Positions 1 to 10,498 of a DNA stretch of 10,498 nucleotides are shown here, piece by piece. Source of the DNA: Leptospira sp. (GTDB lineage Bacteria > Spirochaetota > Leptospiria > Leptospirales > Leptospiraceae); assembly GCA_034439575.1 (NCBI GenBank), contig JAWXAQ010000018.1, positions 1 to 10,498 of the forward strand, written 5' to 3'. The stretch's first letter is position 1; each line of letters starts with the position of its first letter. The notes beneath the pieces were generated by a model. That model saw nothing but the letters and a program-made list of their open reading frames with translations. It did no database searches and had not been told where the DNA came from. Position numbers and translations under genes: made by a program.

Positions 1-14
1 AATGGGCTACTCAT
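1..14 (-). CDS. 5' start of a third Gly-X repeat mini-gene (MSSP...), truncated by the window edge
   Basis: Bases 1-14 (aatgggctactcat) are identical to 543-556, the start of the 287..556 copy, with the same 4-nt gap after the previous TAA. Confidence 0.8.
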
Positions 15-18
15 AATA

Positions 19-282
19 TTAATTCTTAATTATTAAATTATATGGGTATCTTCCATCTCCATTTCCATCTCCATATCCATCTCCATCTCCATCTCCATCT
101 CCATCTCCATCTCCAAATCCATATCCACCTCCATATCCATTTCCACCTCCATATCCATATCCATATCCATATCCACGTCCATTTCCATATCCATCTCCAT
201 ATCCATCTCCAAATCCAAATCCAAATCCATATCCAAATCCATATCCATTTCCATATCCACCTCTACTTAATGGACTACTCAT
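19..282 (-). CDS. Gly-X (GY/GD/GN/GF) repeat protein, 87 aa
   Basis: Conserved N-terminus MSSPLSRGGYGNGYG and C-terminus GNGDGRYPYNLIIKN shared with 287..556; core is made of GGA-NNT hexamers. Confidence 0.8.
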   Translation of the reverse strand: MSSPLSRGGYGNGYGFGYGFGFGFGDGYGDGYGNGRGYGYGYGYGGGNGYGGGYGFGDGDGDGDGDGDGYGDGNGDGRYPYNLIIKN

Positions 283-286
283 AATA

Positions 287-556
287 TTAATTTTTAATTA
301 TTAAATTATATGGGTATCTTCCATCTCCATTTCCATCTCCAAATCCATATCCATTTCCATTTCCATATCCATCTCCATATCCATATCCATATCCACCTCC
401 ATTCCCACGTCCATATCCATATCTATATCCATCTCCATCTCCACATCCATCTCCATATCCATATCCATATCCATATCCATTTCCATATCCGTATCCATTT
501 CCATATCCATATCCATATCCATTTCCATATCCACCTCTACTTAATGGGCTACTCAT
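287..556 (-). CDS. Gly-X (GY/GD/GN) repeat protein, 89 aa
   Basis: Same termini as 19..282; its start overlaps the upstream stop (ATGA at 553-556). Confidence 0.8.
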   Translation of the reverse strand: MSSPLSRGGYGNGYGYGYGNGYGYGNGYGYGYGYGDGCGDGDGYRYGYGRGNGGGYGYGYGDGYGNGNGYGFGDGNGDGRYPYNLIIKN

Positions 557-828
557 CTTAGTGTTGTTCCCTTGAAGGTATATAAGTTAACACTTGATGC
601 AATGGAGTAGACGGCAGTAATAGGGAAAAGGGTCACTGTATCTTGCTCAAATTGATCTAATATAACCGTTGCGTCTTTGGCACCTCTTGCAACCCCTGGC
701 ATCCCTTTAGCTCCGGCAAAACCCCCAAATAATGCTGATTTATCGAGTCCTATAAAACCTTCTTGTGCCTGAACCTCATTACCGAAATAATAAAATCCTC
801 CTGCAACCGTTAAAATCTTCCAGTTCAT
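553..828 (-). CDS. Small beta-rich phage protein resembling DUF6948-like partners of Gly-X repeat genes
   Basis: Pattern ILTVAGGFYYFG...GAKG...LD...P..AV recalls phage proteins I remember adjacent to GxGxG-repeat ORFs; translationally coupled to the repeat gene. Family unverified. Confidence 0.5.
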   Translation of the reverse strand: MNWKILTVAGGFYYFGNEVQAQEGFIGLDKSALFGGFAGAKGMPGVARGAKDATVILDQFEQDTVTLFPITAVYSIASSVNLYTFKGTTLR

Positions 829-5983: not shown

Positions 5984-6003
5984 TTTGTTTTTGCTAAATC
6001 AGT

Positions 6004-6118
6004 AAGGTACTAAAAGTAGCCAACAATCTCTTAAAGCGGTTAAACTTGAAGTTTGTTGATTGATGACTACTTTCAATATCTTGTATTTGAATGAAATTGC
6101 ATATTTTTAACCGCTTTA
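6004..6118 (-). promoter_or_regulatory. Structured 5' leader of the helicase gene (interleaved helices A-B-A'-B', 9-codon uORF at 6073-6102)
   Basis: Perfect 13-bp inverted repeat 6106-6118/6032-6044; 25-bp helix 6058-6082/6004-6028 with 23 pairs, 3 of them G-U, on the minus-strand RNA. Confidence 0.6.
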
Positions 6119-6133
6119 TTTATTTCCTTAATC

Positions 6134-6162
6134 ACTCTATTACAATTTTCTAATAAAGTCAA
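6134..6162 (-). promoter_or_regulatory. Sigma70-type promoter for the helicase gene
   Basis: TTGACT-17 nt-TAGAGT immediately upstream of the structured leader. Confidence 0.55.
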
Positions 6163-6173
6163 ATAGCTTTTAG

Positions 6174-6398
6174 ATTGTAGTAATTGTAGTAGATAATATA
6201 TGTTCAGAATTAAGGATCTCCTTATCTATATACACATACTACAATTAATACAAATACTATATATATATATATATACATATACACTAATATGTATAGGGGG
6301 GTATATGTTTCCAAAAAGGTGTATTATTTGTAGTATGCTGATTGGTAGGGCGAATCCGTGTATTATTGGTGTATTATAAGCGTAGTAATTACTACATT
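6174..6398. other. Putative replication origin (iteron-like repeats plus AT-rich unwinding element)
   Basis: ATTGTAGTA at 6174 and 6183, inverted at 6237, variants at 6327 and 6381-6398; GTGTATTAT three times (6319, 6358, 6369); (TA)9 at 6258-6275; adjacent to the helicase gene. Confidence 0.55.
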
Positions 6399-6433
6399 GC
6401 CTCTTTTTTCCCCAAATATTGTAAAATTACTGA

Positions 6434-6598
6434 TTATATGTCTTTCTTGAATACCAGCCATACTTTTCCCACTTTCAAACCCTTTAAACTGCCCCTTTGT
6501 AGTCTTTTTTTCAGACTCTCTGCTTTGATATTTGTTTGTTTTTCTGCCTCTGTCAATGTCATGATCCCGAATATTTTAAAAAGCTTTTGTATTGTCAT
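6434..6598 (-). CDS. Excisionase/HTH_17 (MerR-like winged HTH) DNA-binding protein, 54 aa (not in ORF track)
   Basis: MTIQKLFKIFGIMTLTEAEKQTNIKAESLKKRLQRGSLKGLKVGKVWLVFKKDI matches the MTxxEA...G.L...KVG..W pattern. Confidence 0.8.
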   Translation of the reverse strand: MTIQKLFKIFGIMTLTEAEKQTNIKAESLKKRLQRGSLKGLKVGKVWLVFKKDI

Positions 6599-6607
6599 AG
6601 AATTTGT

Positions 6608-6710
6608 AAATTGATTGAAATATCAGATCGGTTGTGTCTATCTGATAAATCAAATTAAATAAAATTGATTGAAATATCAGATCGGTTATGTCTATCTGAT
6701 AAATCAAATT
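6608..6710. repeat. Two tandem 49-bp direct repeats (1 mismatch), each containing a dyad
   Basis: 6608-6656 and 6662-6710; each has TTGATT...TATCAGAT-N11-ATCTGATA-AATCAA. Confidence 0.95.
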
Positions 6711-6877
6711 GATTAGAATCCACTTGTAGTCTAAATACGGTTAGTCAATATCGCTCTGTAATGCCCCTAAATGGCTTTCAATTCTTTTCTAGCGATGATA
6801 TGCACTTGCTGGGTTAGAGTGGTCACAAGGTGTATCAAGGCATTATTTTTAGCTATACTTAACCACTACCACCATTA

Positions 6878-7547: not shown

Positions 7548-7850
7548 TTAGTTCCTCAAAACGCTTATGATTTCTATAATATCGTAATGGTTAATATTAT
7601 CTTCTACCCACGTCTCGCATTCTTCTAATGTGTCGAACCTTTTTTCCACTCCGCCATCTCCCGCTAAATGGTATATGTTATATATCTCAATTTCTTCCCA
7701 TCCATATTCCCCGAATCTGTCTTCCTTTTCTTTTTTAATTTCCCAATTCGCCCTATCATCTGCACGATTGTATTCCATTGCTTCATCCGCGTCTTTGTAT
7801 GTGTCGTACTCTTCAATGACATTATCATACCAAGTTAATGCGTATCTCAT
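7548..7850 (-). CDS. Acidic hypothetical protein, 100 aa, paralog of 8623..9099
   Basis: About 54/92 identical residues ungapped by manual count; about 28% D+E. Confidence 0.85.
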   Translation of the reverse strand: MRYALTWYDNVIEEYDTYKDADEAMEYNRADDRANWEIKKEKEDRFGEYGWEEIEIYNIYHLAGDGGVEKRFDTLEECETWVEDNINHYDIIEIISVLRN

Positions 7851-7876: not shown

Positions 7877-8095
7877 TTAATCTTGCATAGGATTGAAACA
7901 ACTATAGCTGGCTGCATCAATTACCCGTTCACACTTTTGTGTAAGTGTGCAATCTGCATAACACCGTTCGACAAGCTCGTAGTACTCTTCTACTTTTTTT
8001 GTAGCGTCTTCCCTATTAATACTGAACTGGCTATATTTCGATAGTATCTTGACTACACGATTTATATAATCTTCCTTTGTGTGTGTTTTTTTCAT
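7877..8095 (-). CDS. Hypothetical protein, 72 aa
   Basis: Co-oriented ORF sharing an upstream motif with 8623..9099. Confidence 0.75.
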   Translation of the reverse strand: MKKTHTKEDYINRVVKILSKYSQFSINREDATKKVEEYYELVERCYADCTLTQKCERVIDAASYSCFNPMQD

Positions 8096-8116
8096 ATTTG
8101 TATAAGTAATAATTAA

Positions 8117-8521
8117 TTAATCCGCGGTCTGCATGAATTTGTCGTATACTTTTAATACTTGTTTTTTATCGAAATTATAATTTTTAATTGCAGCCTGAAA
8201 GCCGATATCTTGCAAGCCGTCAAAAGAATATTGCACTTCGTAATTGTTCAATTCTCTAAGTATTATTTTATCTGTGTCGTTGTTAGCCTTGTCTCTCTCT
8301 ACTTGTTGGCTTGTTATTCTTCGCATTCCATCACGCATTGCATCATAATTCTTAACTAAACAAAACATACCCGCCCCGCAATTCCTCACTTTGTCCCCCT
8401 CATTGATTAAGTGTTTTATTTTTTTGATTCCTTTTTTTAATTGCTCATTATTGAAAGCAAAAAATACCCCATTTTCTTTAAGTAATTTGTTTATCTCTAA
8501 TTCTTGTTGTTTGTTTCTCAT
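8117..8521 (-). CDS. Conserved-looking phage hypothetical protein (FFAFxxEQ...GAG...EL.N.E pattern), 134 aa
   Basis: The motif pattern resembles a widespread uncharacterised family from phage early regions; family name not verified. Confidence 0.7.
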   Translation of the reverse strand: MRNKQQELEINKLLKENGVFFAFNNEQLKKGIKKIKHLINEGDKVRNCGAGMFCLVKNYDAMRDGMRRITSQQVERDKANNDTDKIILRELNNYEVQYSFDGLQDIGFQAAIKNYNFDKKQVLKVYDKFMQTAD

Positions 8522-8560
8522 AGTTTTAATTTAATTGATAAAATATTCACTTTTTTTAAT

Positions 8561-8587
8561 GAGTTGTACGCAAAAATCGTACAACTC
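8561..8587. other. Perfect 10-bp hairpin without a U-tract
   Basis: gagttgtacg-caaaaat-cgtacaactc in an intergenic gap. Confidence 0.8.
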
Positions 8588-8622
8588 GCTATCTTCGGTT
8601 TCTAATTCTTTTCCATTTTTGT

Positions 8623-9099
8623 TTAGCAGTTATAACTAATTTTATAAGCATTCTCTGTAAAACTTCCATTTTTCTTATCTCGTTCTTCGTATTCTGTTAT
8701 AGCCCATTCCGCTTCATATCGTTCATTAAAATAATCAATCACATTAGATTTTGAATCTTTTGTCATGTATTGGTCTAAATGTACAATTTCAGGCTCGCTT
8801 CCGTCAGCTGTCTCTTTCATTCCCACAACCTCATAATGGCTAACCTCATTTTCTATCCACTCCTCGCACTTCTCTAATGTATCAAACGTTTTTTCTAATG
8901 CGCCATCTCCTACCGTATCGTATATGTTATATACCTCCACTTCTTCCAATCCCTCCTTAGTATATCTGTCTTCCTTTTCTTTTTTAATTTCCCAGTTCCC
9001 TCTATCCTCTTCAAGGTTGCTTTCCATCGCTTCATCCGCTTCTTCGTATGTATCGTACTCTTCGAAAACATCGCCATCTAAACTTAATCCGTATTTCAT
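8623..9099 (-). CDS. Acidic hypothetical protein, 158 aa, paralog of 7548..7850 with an extra C-terminal repeat
   Basis: Repeated motif EEYDTYEEA / KTFDTLEKC / DYFNERYEA. Confidence 0.85.
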   Translation of the reverse strand: MKYGLSLDGDVFEEYDTYEEADEAMESNLEEDRGNWEIKKEKEDRYTKEGLEEVEVYNIYDTVGDGALEKTFDTLEKCEEWIENEVSHYEVVGMKETADGSEPEIVHLDQYMTKDSKSNVIDYFNERYEAEWAITEYEERDKKNGSFTENAYKISYNC

Positions 9100-9129
9100 A
9101 TCTGTATAAGTAATAAATAAATAATAAAA

Positions 9130-9384
9130 TTAATCTCTAATAAAGTAAGAACCTTCAACTTCTCCCATATCTCTTAGTGTTTTGTATTTTTTTCTAAACT
9201 CTTTGTATTCTTCTTTAGTTACTTCCTCTATTAAATCTACTAATCCTATTTGCCCATTCTCTGTAGTTACATAACCTTGTGAACCTTCCGAAACAATTCC
9301 ATCCAAGTCTTTTGTGGATACTAAGATACTAAAGAAAGTATCTTCTCCATCCTGTAATGCTTCGCTTGTTTTGTAGTATTTCAT
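9130..9384 (-). CDS. Acidic hypothetical protein, 84 aa, first gene of the leftward transcript
   Basis: Directly downstream of the left promoter-leader cassette. Confidence 0.8.
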   Translation of the reverse strand: MKYYKTSEALQDGEDTFFSILVSTKDLDGIVSEGSQGYVTTENGQIGLVDLIEEVTKEEYKEFRKKYKTLRDMGEVEGSYFIRD

Positions 9385-9416
9385 GTTTGTTTTTGTAATA
9401 ATTAATTATAGAACTC

Positions 9417-9552
9417 AAGTAAGGTAGGAACTACTTAACTCGTACACTCATCTAATTTAATAGTTTGTTGTGCAGTCTTTGCGTTTCATTCTTTGATCCT
9501 TACTTGTTAATGTTCTAATGCTATTATATCCCGATATCGGGACAATGTCAAG
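9417..9552 (-). repeat. Left promoter-leader cassette (inverted repeat of 10051..10179)
   Basis: Manual alignment of its reverse complement to 10051-10179 gives about 112/128 identities and two indels. Confidence 0.95.
9523..9551 (-). promoter_or_regulatory. Consensus sigma70 promoter with a palindromic operator in the spacer
   Basis: TTGACA (9551-9546)-17 nt-TATAAT (9528-9523); perfect palindrome TCCCGATATCGGGA at 9529-9542. Confidence 0.9.
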
Positions 9553-9559
9553 TGTTTTA

Positions 9560-9588
9560 TTGCTTTTCTTTTCCGAATGTATTACTAT
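9560..9588 (+). promoter_or_regulatory. Putative promoter of the terS-like gene
   Basis: TTGCTT-17 nt-TACTAT, back-to-back with the leftward promoter, 8 nt before ATG 9597. Confidence 0.5.
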
Positions 9589-9596
9589 TACTATAT

Positions 9597-10055
9597 ATGA
9601 AAGACACAGGTGATATGACGATATTAGAGCTGCGCAAAAAGAATTGGGGATTGACTGACGCCGTATTAGCGAAGTTATTAGAAGCTTTTTCTTTTGATTA
9701 CACAATACAAGAAGCGTGCGCTTATGTATGTATTAGCACTAATACATTTTGCCGCTGGAATAGACAGTCTTCAGAATTCCGCGAAAGAATGGACAATGCT
9801 AAGTCTTTTTTAGGCATGACCGCGAAGGCAAATCTATACAGAGCAATTAAAAGGGACGGATCCGTTCCCGATTCCTGGGAATATTTGAAAAGGCGACAGA
9901 AAGAAATATACTCCGACAGACAAGAATTGACGGGGAAAAATGGCGACACATTAGAACTAAACATTTTTAATATTCTAGTTGCAATACAAAAAAGTGAACC
10001 CAAAACGATAGAAGGAATGCAGGCAATCCCTGCAGATTCGGAGGAAAGTCCTTGA
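9597..10055 (+). CDS. Terminase small subunit-like HTH protein (start at ATG 9597 or 9615 rather than GTG 9552)
   Basis: KLLEAF...TIQEACAYVCISTNTFCRW HTH, EF..RM..AK helix, YLKRR...YSDRQELTGKNG tail characteristic of TerS proteins. Confidence 0.75.
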   Translation: MKDTGDMTILELRKKNWGLTDAVLAKLLEAFSFDYTIQEACAYVCISTNTFCRWNRQSSEFRERMDNAKSFLGMTAKANLYRAIKRDGSVPDSWEYLKRRQKEIYSDRQELTGKNGDTLELNIFNILVAIQKSEPKTIEGMQAIPADSEESP

Positions 10056-10179
10056 CATTGTCCCGTTGTCGGGATATAATAGAGTTAGAAAGTAAGGATT
10101 CAAAGATTGAAAACCAAAGACTACACAATAAATTATTAAATTAAGTGAGTGTACGAGGCAAGTAATTCCTACTTTACTT
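10051..10179 (+). repeat. Right promoter-leader cassette (inverted repeat of 9417..9552)
   Basis: See the left copy; it begins within the last codons of the terS-like gene. Confidence 0.95.
10052..10080 (+). promoter_or_regulatory. Consensus sigma70 promoter with a palindromic operator in the spacer
   Basis: TTGACA (10052-10057)-17 nt-TATAAT (10075-10080); TCCCG-TTGT-CGGGA at 10061-10074. Confidence 0.9.
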
Positions 10180-10206
10180 TCTTTTTATATTGTTATTATT
10201 TAAAAG

Positions 10207-10338
10207 ATGGACTTAATCCAGATTGAGAGAAGAAAAAAATTGAGGCAGGAAATGGGGAAACTAAGCACGATAGATTACATCCAAGTTGTTTTATTTGTTG
10301 TATTTGTGTGGGTGATGTTGATTGTAATCTTAGTTTAA
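10207..10338 (+). CDS. Small C-terminal-TM membrane peptide, 43 aa (not in ORF track)
   Basis: MDLIQIERRKKLRQEMGKLSTIDYIQVVLFVVFVWVMLIVILV; first ORF after the right leader. Confidence 0.65.
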   Translation: MDLIQIERRKKLRQEMGKLSTIDYIQVVLFVVFVWVMLIVILV

Positions 10339-10358
10339 TTATTTATCAAAAACAAACT

Positions 10359-10498
10359 ATGCCACTAGAAATAATTGATGCAGATAAATTTGTGCTAGAG
10401 CAAGTCTTTAGACCCTATCAAAATATGCTTGGTGTAGAAAAGAGATTTGAAAAACAGCCATTTACTAATCAGAAAACTATTGAAATGCTGAAAGAAGA
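10359..10498 (+). CDS. Hypothetical protein, 3'-truncated by the window edge
   Basis: MPLEIIDADKFVLEQVFRPYQNMLGVEKRFEKQPFTNQKTIEMLKE... open to the end; preceded by CAAAAACAAA like other gene starts. Confidence 0.65.
   Translation, partial: MPLEIIDADKFVLEQVFRPYQNMLGVEKRFEKQPFTNQKTIEMLKE

Follow-up and report, generated by a model that had tools for sequence, protein, structure and literature searches.

Two inverted copies of a promoter-bearing cassette, enclosing a gene for a small terminase-like protein (terS), on balance appear to us to form a hub of two divergent, co-regulated promoters with a new structured leader. They lie in phage DNA near the right end of the window, which is the entire 10,498-bp contig C18 (32.5% G+C) of a Leptospira sp. 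assembly of 37 contigs and 4.1 Mb. An initial annotation of this DNA had offered, as one of two explanations, a co-regulated pair of outward-firing, supposedly immediate-early promoters. Such a predicted promoter pair fits the consensus hexamers, the palindromes in the promoter spacers, the shared leader, the presence of two copies and their conservation in a second lineage.

The repeat structure at the centre of this argument is real. The annotation had placed inverted copies of about 87% identity at 9417-9552 (minus strand) and 10051-10179 (plus strand); our analysis recovered both, with slightly longer arms, giving a left cassette at 9407-9552 (minus) and a right cassette at 10051-10189 (plus). 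A repeat search delimited arms of 90 nt (9407-9496/10100-10189, 82% complementary) and 40 nt (9513-9552/10051-10090, 90% complementary), and a BLAST-type search of the contig's own genome matched 9417-9552 to 10051-10179 at 82% identity ungapped (E 2.4e-32). Mean column identity in a MAFFT alignment of the two cassettes was 86%. From TTGACA to the end of a TTACTT block, 111/127 aligned positions were identical (87.4%), with 9 gap columns. Between the arms lie 44 bp and a 152-aa open reading frame (ORF, 9597-10055), so that only the terS-like gene and its candidate promoter are enclosed, as had been claimed. The terS stop codon (TGA, 10053-10055) indeed falls within the right TTGACA (10052-10057), and each copy faces a different set of small genes away from terS, those on the left being on the minus strand and those on the right on the plus strand. 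The repeat stops ~25-30 nt ahead of the first start codons.

Both cassettes carry a textbook promoter. In the left copy the -35 hexamer TTGACA reads from 9551 to 9546 and the -10 hexamer TATAAT from 9528 to 9523, followed by a leader to ~9410; in the right copy TTGACA at 10052-10057 overlaps the terS stop, TATAAT occupies 10075-10080, and the leader follows. Each site thus reads TTGACA-17-TATAAT, with 12/12 consensus matches and a spacer within the 16-18 nt of a sigma-70 promoter. These were the sole 12/12 sites among 56 promoter-like hits in the window, and a search of all 37 contigs for exact TTGACA-N17-TATAAT returned only the two cassette sites. Judging from the -10 spacing, transcription would start near 9516 (minus) on the left and near 10087 (plus) on the right.

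At an identical position in both promoter spacers we found the palindrome TCCCG-N4-CGGGA, on the left as the perfect 14-bp palindrome TCCCGATATCGGGA (9529-9542) and on the right as TCCCGTTGTCGGGA (10061-10074, plus). Its half-sites are invariant in 4/4 copies, and the central 4 nt differ between left and right. Each of the two phage records introduced below has 2 such sites, in the cassettes only, and a reversed control gave 0. Elsewhere in the 4.1-Mb assembly the palindrome occurred at only 2 other sites, which rules it out as a common host operator. A third near-palindrome with one mismatch (9867-9878) lies within the conserved terS codons for VPDSW and has a different half-site spacing; we treated it as chance.

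The assembly encodes a classical primary sigma factor, a 588-aa RpoD whose regions 2-4 match primary sigmas of solved structures (best E 6.1e-125; E. coli sigma-70, E 1.2e-118). A search of the assembly for the SusD family, made as a test of a Bacteroidota-type host, had 0 matches. Since RpoD is classical, a perfect consensus promoter should be recognised, provided that the host of the contig is of such a kind.

A cassette-like geometry was also seen in an unrelated high-G+C viral lineage (L036:4180-4241 and L037:2630-2690), where TTGACA-tgc-TCCCGtattCGGGA-TATAAT adjoins a small ORF with what we judged by eye to be the N-terminus of an XRE-type helix-turn-helix (HTH) repressor-like protein. 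A second palindrome, CCCG-N4-CGGG, stands ~30 bp upstream. Because the search pattern itself imposed the geometry, we take this likeness as analogy or chance; it serves to illustrate the operator reading.

The same region is carried by two IMG/VR records (G001 and G002) and two metagenome contigs (L055 and L056). G002 (30.1 kb) and the 41.4-kb contig L055 share 99.9-99.99% identity with the window and continue beyond it. G001 (43.5 kb) represents a sister lineage, 95-99% identical to the window, and L056, equal to it in length, is probably the same sequence. CheckV completeness of the two phage records was 70% and 53%, and jointly they cover both arms of the phage. The known distribution is narrow, comprising two close lineages only, all from similar metagenomes.

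In the contig's own genome, in G001 and in G002, the cassette occurs exactly twice, inverted about terS. Occurrence at many unrelated loci, which would have marked a generic phage promoter, was not seen; the two copies flanking terS were the only ones. A covariance model built from four cassette copies (two copies in each of two lineages) detected no additional copy, either in 136,574 bases of phage loci or elsewhere in the own genome. Identity between left and right copies is 87.4% in the window lineage and 85.0% in G001, and orthologous copies are 92.2% (right) and 97.8% (left) identical between lineages, for which the comparison level is the 94.75% overall identity of window positions 8087-10498. 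The two copies within a genome are less alike than orthologues, and therefore the duplication is older than the separation of the two lineages, each of which has retained both copies. Judging from these identities, the cassette copies have not been homogenised since that split.

Five more distant relatives (L044-L048) have no inverted repeat around terS, so the bracket is specific to this lineage. Several searches for diverged cassettes were made. A first exact-block pattern in viral contigs gave only G001 and G002, and a looser one added a single unrelated high-GC lineage. Metagenome contigs yielded only the same two lineages, a neighbour-gene search only the same two records, and a P0002 locus search none. 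A TerS profile scan of species genomes found none, and the TerS protein was present in 0 of 155 other genomes of the same order. A DNA search of a phage collection with 9300-10498 as query had no match, and the ends of the window showed no overlaps with other contigs of the assembly.

Downstream of the -10 element, ~95 nt are conserved in blocks, and these form the predicted structured leader. The left RNA domain spans 9416-9506 (minus), with a closing helix between 9498-9506 and 9416-9424, to which the single-sequence fold adds an outer helix UAGAAC/GUUCUA. The right domain spans 10089-10180 (plus), where 10089-10097 pairs with 10172-10180 and inner helices are enclosed. For the four sense copies RNAalifold predicted a 9-bp closing helix plus inner helices at -13.25 kcal/mol, with 24 pairs and 4 two-sided changes; the corresponding antisense values were -7.2 kcal/mol, 20 pairs and 2 two-sided changes. 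Of the sense-strand cells, 97.9% pair, and 0/500 shuffles attained the observed pairing or covariation score. Several changes in the leader are A-to-G substitutions retained as G-U, which pair only on the transcribed sense strand.

A further leader copy was found in a 469-nt metagenome contig (record 25, run X4), with 6 differences over 10090-10179. Its upstream sequence differs: a 30-letter consensus resembles the promoter spacer of the relative L045 and has no CGGGA half-site. Since the leader occurs there with other sequence ahead of it, it appears to be a module distinct from the promoter. Within the leader, a 10-codon ORF has a Shine-Dalgarno-like AAGGA and begins with ATG or TTG in the window copies; because the start is AAG or GCG in G001, we rejected it as a conserved leader peptide.

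From these features we propose the following mechanism. An old inverted duplication would have produced two paralogous promoter-operator-leader cassettes, each predicted to contain a very strong host sigma-70 promoter. One sequence-specific DNA-binding protein, acting at TCCCG-N4-CGGGA (5+4+5), would switch both promoters together. In the transcript, the 5' end of the leader would pair with a segment ~85 nt downstream and so close the folded domain, which may act in cis on the RNA, either by stabilising its 5' end or by modifying the elongating polymerase or recruiting factors to it in the manner of nut or put elements. The left cassette would drive small acidic early-type genes and replication genes. 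The right one would drive four small genes and also, whether directly or through read-through, the arm with the packaging, structural and lysis genes. Between them, terS would use its own weak, near-leaderless promoter, having been parted from the large terminase gene (terL) when the right cassette and its small genes came between.

The closest functional analogue would be the early region of lambdoid phages, in which the divergent PL and PR, with nutL/nutR (lambda) or putL/putR (HK022), lie on either side of the immunity gene. In HK022, according to the excerpted text of PMC9378689, putL and putR are ~70 nt long, resemble each other and are sufficient for antitermination. The likeness lies in two strong divergent early promoters, each with an operator and then a related cis-acting leader (predicted in our case), and in the placement of these leader elements on opposite strands around the gene for a small DNA-binding protein (PMC9378689, as excerpted). 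Related elements downstream of both divergent promoters, the put/nut-type feature in the part of PMC9378689 that served for comparison, are thus present here. The enclosed gene, however, is a small terminase gene here and a repressor gene there, and no lysogeny genes were found. The leader also differs: it is ~95 nt long, its inner helices are surrounded by a single long closing helix, and neither its sequence nor Rfam points to a relationship. With no homology, no demonstrated read-through and a different enclosed gene, we do not claim membership of the put/nut class.

Several points weigh against the reading as a divergent promoter hub with a structured leader. The remainder of the phage was not found in the 4.1-Mb assembly, nor were short spacer-like matches to it, and the sequencing runs that contain the sequence are metagenomes. 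The link between contig and assembly is therefore weak, and the relevant sigma factor is in turn only assumed. No palindrome-binding protein was found: Pfam searches of ORFs in and near the window recognised an HTH only in the TerS-like protein, below the cut-off. The covariation comes from 4 sequences (two copies in two close lineages), the structure was predicted from those same sequences, and single-sequence folds are no more stable than shuffles (z -0.08 right, -1.6 left). Rfam gave no family at E <= 1 for the window or at E <= 5 for L033:2200-4500, with the presence of put/nut models in Rfam unverified. No intrinsic terminators that an antiterminating leader might overcome were predicted in either arm near the hub. 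Finally, a 10/12 promoter-like site (L033:4111-4140), which might drive the packaging genes, stands after a tRNA gene and upstream of an 83-aa ORF and terL; given this site and the opposed orientation of the tRNA, the late genes may not depend on the right cassette.

The enclosed gene (9597-10055, plus) encodes 152 aa with an N-terminal HTH followed by a long helix. We take the first ATG (9597) as its start because the second (9615) reads TTA in G001. The protein matched phrog_4102 (small terminase, E 1.7e-08) and three further TerS phrogs; it has 948 representative relatives at E <= 0.001, and all 71 of the 71 aligned relatives match phrog_4102. Pfam gave HTH matches below the cut-off only. 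An AlphaFold2 model (pLDDT 87.3) shows the HTH and then a helix at 59-87. Top Foldseek matches were Sf6 TerS (E 0.17, probability 0.94) and the phBC6A51 protein 2ao9, none reaching E <= 0.001, and VIA-align placed Sf6 TerS in its top three rows at Z 6.1, below the tool's safe level for helical proteins. A 44% identical homologue in the viral contigs L044 and L045 is encoded by a gene overlapping the start of a TerL-like ORF, and the next three genes there are weakly syntenic with those after terL in this phage. On profile and homologue synteny, and with a fold match of modest score, we accept the enclosed protein as a member of the TerS family.

A position directly upstream of terL is usual for this family, though outside its definition. 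The initial annotation had implied this adjacency, and it does not apply here: terL (L033:4452-5957; phrog_2 at 9.7e-17; 42% identity with annotated terminases) begins 1.55 kb further on, beyond the end of the window. The interval holds the right cassette, ORFs of 43, 83, 55 and 76 aa, a tRNA-Leu(CAG) on the opposite strand and another 83-aa ORF. TerS proteins of the phages with the closest TerL showed no similarity to the enclosed protein. The 83-aa ORF just before terL was tried as a TerS and set aside, having no similarity to the TerS of Erwinia phage 49.

A candidate weak terS promoter, TTGCTT-N17-TACTAT (9560-9588, plus), was read directly from the sequence and falls below the threshold of the promoter scan. 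It stops 8 nt before the terS ATG and stands back to back with the left-cassette -35. Its hexamers and 17-nt spacing are kept in G001, and the 8-nt geometry from promoter to ATG recurs in L045. We infer that the terS message may be near-leaderless and made from this promoter. At the 3' end of terS we also observed a hairpin, TGCAGG-CAATC-CCTGCA (10018-10034), which is terminator-like on the minus strand only, that is, against leftward transcription entering terS.

The identity of the enclosed protein bears on the first alternative, in which the repeats are, also or instead, binding arms for TerS. They would act as a pacL/pacR-like pair looping the 0.5-kb terS segment for the first packaging cut, as late shut-off sites for both promoters, or as both. 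Consistent with this, the enclosed protein belongs to the TerS family and has an N-terminal HTH, its gene is the sole one within the repeats, and no other HTH was recognised among the scanned ORFs. SPP1 offers a precedent: there, the recognition DNA of the small terminase overlaps promoters at terS and its binding arms flank a central segment, according to the excerpt of PMC6316719. The SPP1 arrangement pacL-pacC-pacR overlaps PL1/PL2 and gene 1 (same excerpt, PMC6316719), and predicted promoters likewise lie around terS here. The SPP1 terminase is also reported, in the title of a cited paper, to repress its own synthesis. In SPP1 the boxes are arranged as direct repeats within a few hundred bp at the 5' end of gene 1, as stated in the excerpt of PMC4737164, whereas here two ~140-bp inverted copies 498 bp apart, predicted to fire outward, bracket the whole gene.

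Other observations argue against TerS-binding arms. Within the repeat it is a textbook promoter that is best conserved, L044-L048 lack such a repeat at terS, and in the run X4 contig the leader follows a different upstream sequence. TerS family members are ring-forming in the excerpted account (PMC4737164). A palindromic operator, by contrast, would usually be bound by a dimeric regulator. We therefore regard the alternative as unlikely. A composite version is a long shot in our view: the leader would be a new class of cis-acting phage RNA, two perfect promoters would express both arms of a ~40-kb virulent phage, and the enclosed TerS would bind the shared palindromes or arms, shutting off both promoters and marking the start of packaging in an island made negatively supercoiled by divergent transcription.

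A second alternative makes each cassette a small-RNA gene, in which the promoter would be followed by a ~100-nt structured RNA ending at the closing helix, and the downstream genes would be reached by read-through only. The closing helix encloses the entire conserved domain, in the right copy it is followed by the U-rich run TCTTTTTAT, and the repeat ends ~25-30 nt before the first start codons. In the left copy, however, the helix is not followed by a U-run. Being A/U-rich and enclosing ~75 nt, the helix does not resemble an intrinsic terminator, and no terminator was reported at this place by the scan. There was no Rfam match, and the first genes of either arm have no other evident promoter. 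We consider a pair of small-RNA genes decidedly improbable.

It is very improbable that the repeat is a relic with no present function, such as the ends of an insertion-sequence-like element with an HTH gene, or a recombination scar. Insertion sequences with outward promoters in the element ends are known. The TerS-like protein matched Pfam HTH_Tnp_1_2 at E 0.0029 (below the cut-off), and 19/71 of its homologues matched phrog_157, "transposase". No catalytic transposase was found, however. The gene of the 44% homologue occupies the canonical position, where it overlaps terL and has the same divergent left arm beside it; terS is therefore resident rather than mobile. Two lineages conserve both copies (92% and 98%, against 94.75% for 8087-10498 overall), and perfect promoters would not persist without selection.

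To the inversion of the 0.5-kb terS segment by recombination between the arms we give almost no credence. The initial annotation had raised it for 9553-10050, and the ~140-bp inverted repeats do bracket a discrete segment. Switches of the Hin/Gin/Cin or fim type have short, near-identical sites and an adjacent recombinase, and inversion changes the target of a promoter. The bracketing of a short segment by inverted repeats is shared. Here, by contrast, long arms have diverged from each other, the search for a recombinase was negative, and a single orientation is observed. Both promoters are located within the arms rather than in the segment between them, so that an inversion would alter nothing but the strand of terS. 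The window, G001, G002, L055 and the Logan contigs of runs X1, X2 and X3 all have the same single orientation and are collinear where they span the segment; X1 is possibly the source sample, and contigs cannot reveal rare orientations. No inversion joint was listed among the contigs. The arms are 85-87% identical with a 9-column indel, their left/right differences are independent of lineage, and they have not been homogenised since the split. Resolvase (PF00239) and Phage_integrase (PF00589) were each found in 0/2 phage records (70% and 53% complete, together covering both arms), and these same searches contributed no lysogeny genes.

If the reading as a divergent promoter hub is true, this phage has compact control of its whole genome from one 0.8-kb hub, in which two promoters of identical strength have an operator and a leader RNA in common. 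As no Rfam family matched, the leader would count as a structured RNA motif not described before, and the position of terS between the promoters would offer a simple system for the coordination of early transcription with the initiation of packaging. In practical terms, the cassette is predicted to be a natural and very strong promoter, probably open to repression, that comes with a defined 5' leader. Its narrow distribution, in two close lineages, limits the finding.

The left arm, all on the minus strand, begins with a gene for an 84-aa acidic protein with no family match (9130-9384) and continues with two acidic paralogues, a DUF7659 protein, a primase-like protein and a Sak4-like ATPase. 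The two paralogues (7548-7850 and 8623-9099) are very acidic small proteins, 75-81% identical in nucleotide sequence over ~300 bp; they have no family match, and proteins of this sort are typically encoded by early or host-takeover genes in phages. Three left-arm genes have in common, in their start regions (8071-8119, 9075-9123 and 9360-9408), a ~49-nt motif, on the coding strand roughly TAATTAATTATTAC..ACAAA..ATG, with no Shine-Dalgarno sequence. This motif may be a shared signal for translation initiation or an intercistronic one. Between the primase-like gene and the small-gene block lie ~0.8 kb of noncoding DNA (5984-6770) with a (TA)n run and, at 6608-6715, two 54-bp units in tandem (94% identity), both of which contain a hairpin. 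The segment is a candidate replication origin, and its equivalent in G001 has ~2.1 kb extra (L032:4878-6963).

The right arm consists of small ORFs, then TerL, a head protein, large unassigned proteins (presumably of the tail) and a peptidase. Its first gene (10207-10338, plus) encodes 43 aa with a hydrophobic C-terminal half, and its second (10359-10498, plus) is truncated by the contig end, the complete 83-aa gene being found in L033:3206-3457. The tRNA-Leu(CAG) gene (L033:4038-4110), opposite to the right arm, is 0.9 kb to the right of the window end. Summed contig depth in four metagenome runs rises ~7-10 fold from 10358 on (10358-10498), where there are several short variant contigs. The 83-aa gene starting at 10359 seems to be common to many phages in the metagenome samples, and this is probably why the window contig ends near 10498.

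Taken together, the records suggest a phage map of ~40 kb with two divergent arms meeting at a tandem array of paralogues. At the left end of the window (1-582) we observed such an array, with units of ~268-274 bp, each an ORF of 87-91 aa on the minus strand; it has more copies in G001 (L032:12867-14711). Contigs terminate within the tandem array, and therefore the two phage arms probably meet there. At the right end of G002, paralogous ORFs in units of ~315 bp on the minus strand (L060:14081-14997) resemble the array at the left end of the window.

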